Source: a virus
Virus record (IMG/VR): IMGVR_UViG_3300025073_000448
Length of the DNA: 28,644 bases
Direction: 5' to 3' (one strand)
Both the position numbers and the translations under genes were made by a program. Position 1 is the first letter of the stretch; every line of letters begins with the position of its first letter. The notes below the pieces were generated by a model that did not search any database, was not told where the DNA came from, and saw nothing but the letters and a program-made list of their open reading frames with translations. Below are positions 23,021 to 27,156 of the stretch, in pieces.

Positions 23021-23058
23021 GTTTCAATCCACGCCCCCCCCCCTGAGTGGGGAGCGAC
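23021..23058 (-). CRISPR. Solitary type I-C-like CRISPR repeat unit (no array)
   Basis: Minus strand GTCGCTCCCCACTCAGGGGGGGGGGCGTGGATTGAAAC has the GTCGC start, GC stem and GCGTGGATTGAAAC end of I-C repeats. It is 38 nt because of an expanded G-run. No second copy was seen. Confidence 0.8.
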
Positions 23059-25256: not shown

Positions 25257-25919
25257 ATGGCAGATATCGATGGTATGGACAGCACGGACAAGACATGCAA
25301 GCCTCACGAGACGTTGCGTTCAGCATTCGAGGCGTTCAATGGAAGCAGGATCAGGGCGCGCAAGCTCTTCCTCACCTCAATCGCGGCACAACTCACCATG
25401 AGCCAGGCGGTGCAGCGCGCGATGACGGTCGAGGAGATCCAGGGCTACCTCGAGGGGACGTTCTCCACCCTTCTCGGCATGAGGAAGAGGGAGGTGGAGA
25501 TTGGGATGGAAGAGATTTCCGATAGGGCAAGAGTGGCCGGGTCAAGCCTTGGCGCACTCATTGCCTCTGCTGGATTCCGCTTTCCCTTCGAGGGTGGCGA
25601 TGAAGAGAATGACGGCCTTGAAGGTGGGGCAGCCGGATCTTCCTTCTCTCCCGCCATCTCCCCAGCCGACTCCATCCAGGAAGACAAGGTAATCTGCCTG
25701 GAATGCGGGAAAGAGTTCAAGCAGCTCACGCAGAAGCACCTCTCTCTTCACAGCCTTTCTCCCAAGGAGTACAGGCAGAAGCACGGGATGAGGCTGAAAA
25801 CTTCTCTCATGGCTAAGTCGTTGTCCGCGGCGAGGTCCGAGGCTGCGAAGGCTCGGGGAGTGCCTGAGAATCTGAAGGCGTTTCAGGAGAAAAGAAGGCA
25901 AGAGAAAGGAGAGGGTTGA
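25257..25919 (+). CDS. mucR: Ros/MucR family transcriptional regulator
   Basis: SIQEDKVICLECGKEFKQLTQKHLSLHSLSPKEYRQKHGM...LMAKSLSAARSEAAKARG, plus N-terminal oligomerisation-like helices; SD GGGGAG. Confidence 0.9.
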   Translation: MADIDGMDSTDKTCKPHETLRSAFEAFNGSRIRARKLFLTSIAAQLTMSQAVQRAMTVEEIQGYLEGTFSTLLGMRKREVEIGMEEISDRARVAGSSLGALIASAGFRFPFEGGDEENDGLEGGAAGSSFSPAISPADSIQEDKVICLECGKEFKQLTQKHLSLHSLSPKEYRQKHGMRLKTSLMAKSLSAARSEAAKARGVPENLKAFQEKRRQEKGEG

Positions 25920-26334: not shown

Positions 26335-27156
26335 ATGGCAAAAGCCTCTCGCTATCAAATGAGCATGACACCCGTAAGTAAGATGGTGGCAGACTCAATC
26401 AAGTTCATCCAGGACAATGAGCCCGCCGAGGGGTACTTTGTTGGCTTCTCTGGCGGGAAGGATTCCATCGTCTCCTTGGAGTTGTGCCGAATGGCAGGCG
26501 TGAAACATCAAGCCTTCTACTCGGCAACTGGAATTGATCCGCCCGAAGTTGTCAAGTTCATTCGGGAACACTATCCATCCGTGAAGTGGCTACGGCCCAA
26601 GATGACGTTTTGGGAAGGCATTTACAAAAAACAACCTCCATTGAGGATTCAACGCTGGTGCTGCGATGTGCTCAAAAAAGATCCGTCCAAGAACCTGCAC
26701 GCATGGGTGACGTTTTCGGAACGATCTGGTGGAATGATGTGGACTCCATTGAATCATCGGATTATGGGAATCCGCGCAGAGGAGTCCGTTAAGCGGGCGT
26801 TGCGCCCCATGATTGATTATTTTAAGAGATATAAGCAATACATTCTAAAACCGATATTCCATTGGACCTCATGGCACGTTTGGGATTTCATCGCCGAGAG
26901 GGGATTGCCATATCCATGTCTGTATGACGAGGGGTTTGACCGCATTGGCTGAGTGATTTGTCCGTTCTTGTGTCACAAGAACCAGCGCGCAATCAACCAG
27001 CACAAGGCAAGATGGCCCAAGCAGTACAGGGCTTTTGAGCATGCCATGACTCGATGGTGGCATAAGAAGCGTAGATCGAATGGATTTAGGCCGGAAGAAT
27101 ATGAGGACGAGACTCCTGAAGAATATATCGCGGCCTGGTATCGCGGATTTGAATAA
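26335..27156 (+). CDS. PAPS/APS-reductase-family (PP-loop, [4Fe-4S]) protein with in-frame UGA (probable selenocysteine at residue 206); 273 aa
   Basis: FSGGKDS, RWCCDVLKK, GIRAEESVKR, KPIFHW, then LYDEGFDRIG-TGA-VICPF. The two ORF-track pieces (26278-26952 and 26953-27156) are one reading frame. Confidence 0.85.
26954..26995 (+). promoter_or_regulatory. Putative bacterial SECIS element
   Basis: Perfect 8-bp stem GTTCTTGT (26964-26971)/ACAAGAAC (26975-26982). The loop GTC starts 19 nt after the TGA. Lower stem TGATT (26954-26958)/AATCA (26991-26995). Confidence 0.7.

Follow-up and report, generated by a model that had tools for sequence, protein, structure and literature searches.

The window analysed here, a stretch of 28,644 nucleotides lying in the IMG/VR virus record IMGVR_UViG_3300025073_000448, carries on its plus strand (26335-27156) a gene for a PAPS-reductase-like PP-loop enzyme (PF01507, phrog_424) whose reading frame contains one UGA codon (26950-26952), and this codon is very probably read as selenocysteine (Sec). 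The full virus record (G000), that of a groundwater phage, comprises 85,285 bp, is estimated to be 98% complete, and contains terminase, portal, primase and other phage genes. The UGA stands at a column that is occupied by cysteine in the homologues and would encode Sec206, the first position of a U-x-x-C motif. The residue inserted would be Sec rather than Cys, and the host of the phage would be expected to carry selA, selB, selC and selD.

The sequence-only reading of this DNA had described a single TGA within an otherwise intact gene, and this description holds: the peptide R-I-G-*-V-I-C-P is interrupted by TGA 26950-26952, the sole stop between the ATG at 26335 and the TAA at 27154-27156, a span of 273 codons including the UGA. 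This TGA is not an assembly slip, because it recurs in L081 (a groundwater metagenome) and L082, two assemblies of different sequencing runs that match the window with 100% identity over 1.0-1.2 kb including this codon.

Among the matches listed, the column of the UGA holds Cys (TGT or TGC) in 119 of 119 protein homologues and in 79 of 79 IMG/VR loci. IMG/VR and the JGI metagenomes were also scanned with a degenerate DNA pattern for Y-D-[EQ]-G-x-x-R-x-G-TGA-x-x-C-P, which matched three IMG/VR and four JGI contigs, representing three distinct genes (L085 = L087 = L198, L086 = L201 and L199 = L200). The same pattern with TGY in place of TGA matched more than 111 contigs, and no contig matched when TGA was placed at the second Cys; a strict TGA pattern for the sub-lineage of the window itself likewise had no match in IMG/VR. 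When the N-terminal piece of L085 was used as the query of a protein search, only six of the 190 family proteins lacked G-C-x-x-C-P, and all six end exactly at R-[IL]-G; these are P0002 (the window), P0122, P0123, P0130, P0132 (L205) and P0134, the stop codons of P0005, P0123 and P0130 being deduced from where the proteins end. In L205, TGA is found at both cysteines of the CxxC (G-*-I-V-*-P, at L205:778-792), and the tail of about 60 codons beyond is intact and conserved, which makes this gene a candidate UxxU selenoprotein. In a profile search with PF01507, each of four virus records gave exactly one match that is interrupted by a single TGA. The UxxC and UxxU forms make up little of the family, 2 among the 150 best cluster representatives, and the trees require at least three Cys/UGA changes in the whole family and at least four within the subfamily, or at least five when L199 is included. 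By single steps, a stop codon can arise in the gene in 135 ways, so that random nonsense would fall on the UGA column with a chance of 1/135, and repeated random nonsense at this one codon is therefore not credible.

The hairpin that the sequence-only reading had placed after the UGA is also present. It is a SECIS-like (selenocysteine insertion sequence-like) stem-loop at 26954-26995 on the plus strand, with a lower stem (26954-26958/26991-26995), an upper stem (26964-26971/26975-26982) and the loop GUC (26972-26974). The upper stem consists of eight perfect pairs, and the loop G lies 19 nt past the TGA, which corresponds to +23 when the U of UGA is taken as +1. RNAfold adds the lower stem, and the 71-nt fold has a free energy (dG) of -23.4 with a z score of -2.5. 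When the window peptide was recoded synonymously with phage codon usage, 0.6% of the recodings gave an equally good hairpin; in synonymous resampling of four UGA lineages, p values of 0.006 (window), 0.084, 0.041 and 0.083 were obtained (combined 8e-4).

A fixed rule was used to compare the UGA and Cys forms: the stem had to be perfect and 5 bp or longer, and the loop had to measure 3-8 nt, to have a G within its first two nucleotides and to begin between +17 and +38. Under this rule all four independent UGA lineages have a hairpin (7-8 bp, -5.7 to -9.0 kcal/mol), compared with 3 of 127 distinct Cys genes that have one at -5 or lower (Fisher p = 3e-6). As a background, 12 of 176 random in-frame TGA contexts of the window phage genome pass the rule. 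These 12 contexts in the 85-kb genome were also considered as further UGA-plus-hairpin candidates, and none was convincing; the one at genome position 76483 was rejected, as its frame looks non-coding. The association of the hairpin with TGA is evident from matched pairs too. L083, the closest Cys homologue of the window, encodes the identical 16-residue peptide and has no hairpin. Similarly, the Cys forms L206 and L207, which code for the same peptide (P-M-I-C-S-S-G-M-G), have none, in contrast to L086 (7 bp) and L205 (9 bp), and L199 has a hairpin that its Cys sister L063 lacks. The loop of the 9-bp hairpin in L205 (JGI 3300068073, Ga0613805_068590) begins at +29 when counted from the first UGA and at +17 when counted from the second.

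In E. coli, fdhF with its codon 140 is the prototype of a bacterial selenoprotein gene with a SECIS inside the open reading frame (ORF) that is read by SelB. The window gene resembles this type in that an in-frame UGA occupies a Cys-homologous position and a stem-loop follows a few nucleotides downstream. The apical loop of fdhF, read from NC_000913, is GGUC at +22 to +25, and the loop of the window (G23-U24-C25) has its G-U at +23/+24 in register with it. The loop of L199 is GGUC from +22, that of L085 is GGUC at +27 to +30, and L086 and L205 have CGGGA and CGGGU, respectively, at +29. The window differs from this prototype in that a loop of 3 nt caps a perfect helix of 8 bp in which there is no bulged U, and the binding of SelB to this stem is a prediction. 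As among bacterial selenoprotein genes, one family here contains both Cys and Sec forms; the difference is that the carrier is a phage that has no Sec machinery of its own.

A second phage, G001 (89,432 bp, estimated complete), is closely related to the window phage, with 89.6% nucleotide identity over 64% of the latter and flanking proteins that are 80-93% identical. Its PAPS-like allele is only about 54% identical in amino acid sequence, lies at another position and in another orientation, belongs to another clade, and also has a UGA and a GGUC hairpin. Since two separately acquired alleles of one phage lineage both have UGA, a property of the shared host is suggested, most simply an active Sec system. 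The two loci (G000 67425-68246 and G001:C1:82342-82815) hold different alleles relative to the shared flanking genes, which represents mosaic replacement of an accessory gene. A tblastx comparison of G000 and G001 for shared in-frame stops was uninformative, as the two DNAs are too similar. The idea of a host among the Desulfobacterota is based solely on homologues annotated in metagenome-assembled genomes of Desulfovibrio, which are 55-58% identical.

Several results weigh against the reading of the UGA as Sec. The TGA pattern had no match in 185,579 species genomes, and no SECIS model matched in an Rfam scan, either at the gathering cut-off or at E <= 10. Only one sequence represents the window lineage; it lies within a group of Cys forms, the nearest of which is 77% identical, and its TGA could in principle be recent. 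The large terminase subunit (TerL) shares no more than about 44% identity with the terminases of Pseudomonadota phages, and a search with it for prophage relatives or a host gave no match. Sec insertion and Cys insertion cannot be separated from the sequence alone. In addition, two divergent members of the family, L080/L130 (G005:C1:6571-7173) and L154 (G004:C1:28931-29539), have an in-frame TGA at a conserved Gly column (K-E-x-x-G-A-G), followed in both L080 and L154 by GCCGGA and by no SECIS-like hairpin. This implies that not every TGA in the PAPS-reductase-like family is Sec. The genomes of L080 and L154 end 10 of 75 and 21 of 46 ORFs with TGA, and genetic code 25 was rejected as an explanation of these two codons, because both genomes use TGA to end genes; for the Gly-column TGA, a second site of recoding is one possibility, with read-through by leakage and decay in parallel as others.

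Of the other explanations, the one that survives best, itself improbable, is a recent TGY-to-TGA nonsense mutation in the window copy, by which translation would stop after Gly205, the gene would be a young pseudogene, and the hairpin would be a by-product of the sequence encoding F-L-C-H-K-N. The window lineage being one sequence, with nearest relatives (70-77% identity) that all have Cys, agrees with this explanation, as does the fact that four of the eight stem pairs are dictated by the amino acid sequence; the decay of accessory phage genes does happen, and TGA at a non-Cys column is present in two other members of the family. Against this, the mutation would have hit the one codon in 135 at which at least four other independent lineages have TGA as well, and the TGA is thus not unique to the window genome, a point that the sequence-only reading had left to a search of homologues. 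The rarity of the hairpin among synonymous recodings and its absence from the Cys sister with the identical peptide also speak against a by-product, as do the loop in register with fdhF and the other TGA allele in the closely related phage, and no second lesion is found across the 273 codons.

Similarly unlikely, and placed next, is programmed leaky termination independent of SelB, in which a near-cognate or suppressor tRNA would insert Cys or Trp, a possibly toxic enzyme would be kept at a low level, and the hairpin would stimulate read-through. The in-frame UGAs at the non-Cys column of the phage PAPS-reductase-like genes L080 and L154 would suit such an arrangement, and the inserted residue is not readable from sequence. 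Yet among some 135 possible routes one catalytic Cys is favoured, and in L205 both Cys positions of the CxxC; the enzyme would lose its activity with Trp in place of an invariant Cys, and no suppressor tRNA is present in the four virus records. The hairpins moreover have the position and the G/GU loop of bacterial SECIS elements, whereas the Gly-column TGAs lack such hairpins.

Reading through the UGA as Sec would add 67 codons (26953-27153, plus strand), and these are 82-84% identical in amino acid sequence to the Cys homologues, with synonymous sites saturated. The nonsynonymous divergence (pN) of L085/L086 is 0.305 downstream and 0.296 upstream of the UGA, with synonymous divergence (pS) saturated, and that of L086/L205 is 0.204 downstream and 0.226 upstream, with pS at about 0.75 and saturated. 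By these comparisons, the part downstream of the UGA is under purifying selection, with the same constraint as the upstream part, which answers the question of selection raised in the sequence-only reading. A split gene is very improbable; in it, translation would restart at the GTG that follows the TGA, and the resulting C-terminal protein of 67 residues would assemble with an N-terminal one of 205 residues into a single enzyme. The codon after the TGA is indeed GTG in the window and in L086 and ATG in L085, but it is ATA in L199 and L205, and in L205 another TGA follows three codons further on. Such a split would also delete the invariant Cys, and no Shine-Dalgarno sequence precedes the GTG. 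Called C-terminal fragments carrying the 67-residue tail were searched for and none was found, gene callers having recorded no such pieces.

In the four contigs, TGA ends 25 of 76, 9 of 17, 12 of 16 and 9 of 18 genes (stop usage of non-overlapping ORFs), and an ORF of 5,663 codons contains no in-frame TGA; no tRNA or tRNA-Sec gene was found in the four virus records scanned. Because these phages otherwise use TGA as an ordinary stop and have no tRNAs, host SelB and host tRNA-Sec must do the decoding. A genome-wide code with TGA as a sense codon in the phage or its host has next to no probability: phage stop-codon recoding is known, but in the four contigs between about a third and three quarters of the genes terminate at TGA, which is missing from the 5,663-codon ORF and is confined to the same Cys of each family gene (to both of the CxxC in L205) while other Cys codons remain TGY. 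A crude ORF-coverage test for recoding was not discriminating.

Based on the reading of the UGA as Sec, the following mechanism may be proposed. As the ribosome arrives at the UGA, host SelB with Sec-tRNA(Sec) would bind the stem-loop at 26954-26995, and UGA 26950-26952 would be decoded as Sec206. The product would be a PAPS-reductase-like PP-loop enzyme of 273 residues in which U-x-x-C replaces C-x-x-C.

The assignment of the protein to this family is clear. The window protein matches PF01507 (PAPS_reduct) at 1e-27 with 97.7 bits against a cut-off of 22.5, matches phrog_424 at 5e-33, and aligns end to end with full-length homologues of 245-270 residues. The ATP pyrophosphatase signature of the PP loop, SGGKDS (residues 39-44, 26449-26466), is invariant in the alignments, as are Cys109-Cys110 of the W-C-C (26659-26664), which form the first half of the CC...CxxC motif. 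Cys209 (TGT, 26959-26961), the second Cys of the UxxC, also occupies an invariant column, at which L205 too has TGA. All of these features lie on the plus strand. An AlphaFold2 model built from 79 homologues has a mean confidence (predicted local distance difference test, pLDDT) of 94.2 and supersedes an earlier model from 12 sequences (pLDDT 55.7); in it, the 67 residues after the TGA form helices packed on the core with pLDDT values of 91-98.

The top Foldseek matches of the model are CysH/APS (adenosine 5'-phosphosulfate) reductases, namely 6VPU, 7LHS, 1SUR and 2GOY. The fold is the same as that of the assimilatory [4Fe-4S] APS reductases of P. aeruginosa (2GOY) and M. tuberculosis (7LHR/7LHS), with a Foldseek E value of about 1e-9 and template modelling (TM) scores of 0.5-0.66; the PP-loop domain is common to both, and the CC...CxxC motif matches column for column, although the identity is only about 20%. 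In the profile alignment of the family, both halves of W-C-C...G-C-x-x-C-P pair with the CC and CxxC of 2GOY, and the UGA column aligns with Cys228, in agreement with the proposal of the sequence-only reading that the UGA replaces a cysteine of CC...CxxC. In the P. aeruginosa APS reductase 2GOY, the four cysteines of this motif bind a [4Fe-4S] cluster. By homology with this motif, Sec206 would ligate such a cluster or serve as a redox or sulfur-relay residue. Since the first Cys has been replaced repeatedly, and its partner too in L205, the CxxC pair appears to be the chemically critical site.

Compared with CysH-type enzymes, the window protein has no catalytic E-C-G-L-H tail and has instead a helical tail ending in W-Y-R-G-F-E. 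The NCBIfam models for cysH, APS_reductase and PAPS_reductase score far under their cut-offs. A role in sulfate assimilation is unlikely, because the catalytic tail of CysH is missing and the NCBIfam cysH and APS models fall far below their cut-offs. Among the models of defence systems, the best is BrxP, with 4e-25 over the PAPS domain, followed more weakly by DndC (1e-5); the NCBIfam model of DndC gives 23 bits against a cut-off of 290. The relation to BrxP and DndC is, at the level of these profile matches, similarity and not equivalence. BrxP, SspD and DndC are sulfur-inserting PAPS-domain proteins of DNA phosphorothioation, which need a partner NTPase (PMC12914056). The PAPS-reductase domain of the window protein is like theirs, and in relatives of the window gene the surroundings are DNA methylase and helicase genes; in contrast to BrxP, the window protein is a stand-alone domain of 273 residues without DUF4007. 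The neighbours scanned, a subset of the phage ORFs, comprise a MucR-like regulator and ORFs without Pfam matches, and among them no NTPase partner of the BrxC/SspC/DndD type was seen beside the gene. By family resemblance, the function may be a sulfur-dependent modification of nucleic acids or nucleotides like that of BrxP, SspD and DndC. A DNA-modification setting fits, because methyltransferase and helicase genes adjoin the PAPS-like gene in relatives. These arrangements are found on the contig of P0123 (ENA ERZ1426829) and at L206:2220-3296, and the neighbouring genes encode an 896-residue fusion of Helicase_C with N6_N4_Mtase and, together with a C5 DNA methylase, a UvrD helicase.

On a wider scale, it may be, tentatively, that phages of selenium-using bacteria have repeatedly turned the active-site or cluster Cys of a BrxP/DndC-like enzyme into Sec, up to UxxU, which would place Sec at the [4Fe-4S] ligand or sulfur-relay site of a nucleic-acid-modifying enzyme and make the modification dependent on host selenium and SelB; we regard this as somewhat less probable than not. 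If Sec is indeed inserted, a Sec-dependent phage gene would tie the fitness of the phage to the selenium status of the host, and it could serve as a host marker, because the host must encode selABCD.

The decoding mechanism, SelB with a SECIS inside the ORF, is the known bacterial one, and novelty appears to lie in the carrier, the family and the site. No bacteriophage selenoprotein gene was described in the literature searched. A 2022 catalogue of prokaryotic selenoprotein families lists neither a PAPS-reductase-like family nor any phage (PMC9312934), and tRNA-Sec genes have been noted in huge phages (PMC10747093). Placing Sec on a residue that binds an Fe-S cluster in homologues, together with the UxxU variant, also looks new. 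The family is very common in phage contigs, with at least 357 IMG/VR relatives confirmed, and the Sec site would mark the first Cys of its CxxC as chemically critical in this very common phage enzyme. Phage 'PAPS reductase' accessory genes (phrog_424) are often listed as cysH auxiliary metabolic genes. The window gene is of the same family, but the members described encode Cys. Surveys of phage 'cysH' auxiliary genes would miscount the UGA forms, because gene callers truncate such genes.

Some further features were observed in the window and in related contigs. In the window protein, a 17-residue insertion after W-C-C...K-K-D-P-S-K (26695-26750, residues ~121-138) is absent from the closest relatives and is modelled as a beta-hairpin with lower confidence (pLDDT 72-81). 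The gene directly upstream (25257-25919) encodes a protein of 220 residues with a C-terminal ROS/MucR zinc finger (PF05443, 2e-27). On the minus strand at 23021-23058 there is a solitary CRISPR-like repeat that ends in ...CGTGGATTGAAAC and is made longer than the usual type I-C repeat by ten consecutive G in its central part; it could provide a lead to the host. Finally, a phage-like contig with a Cys-form relative (L208) contains, two genes upstream of that relative, a gene at 681-1043 for a 120-residue protein with a release-factor domain (PF00472, RF-1/ArfB-like).

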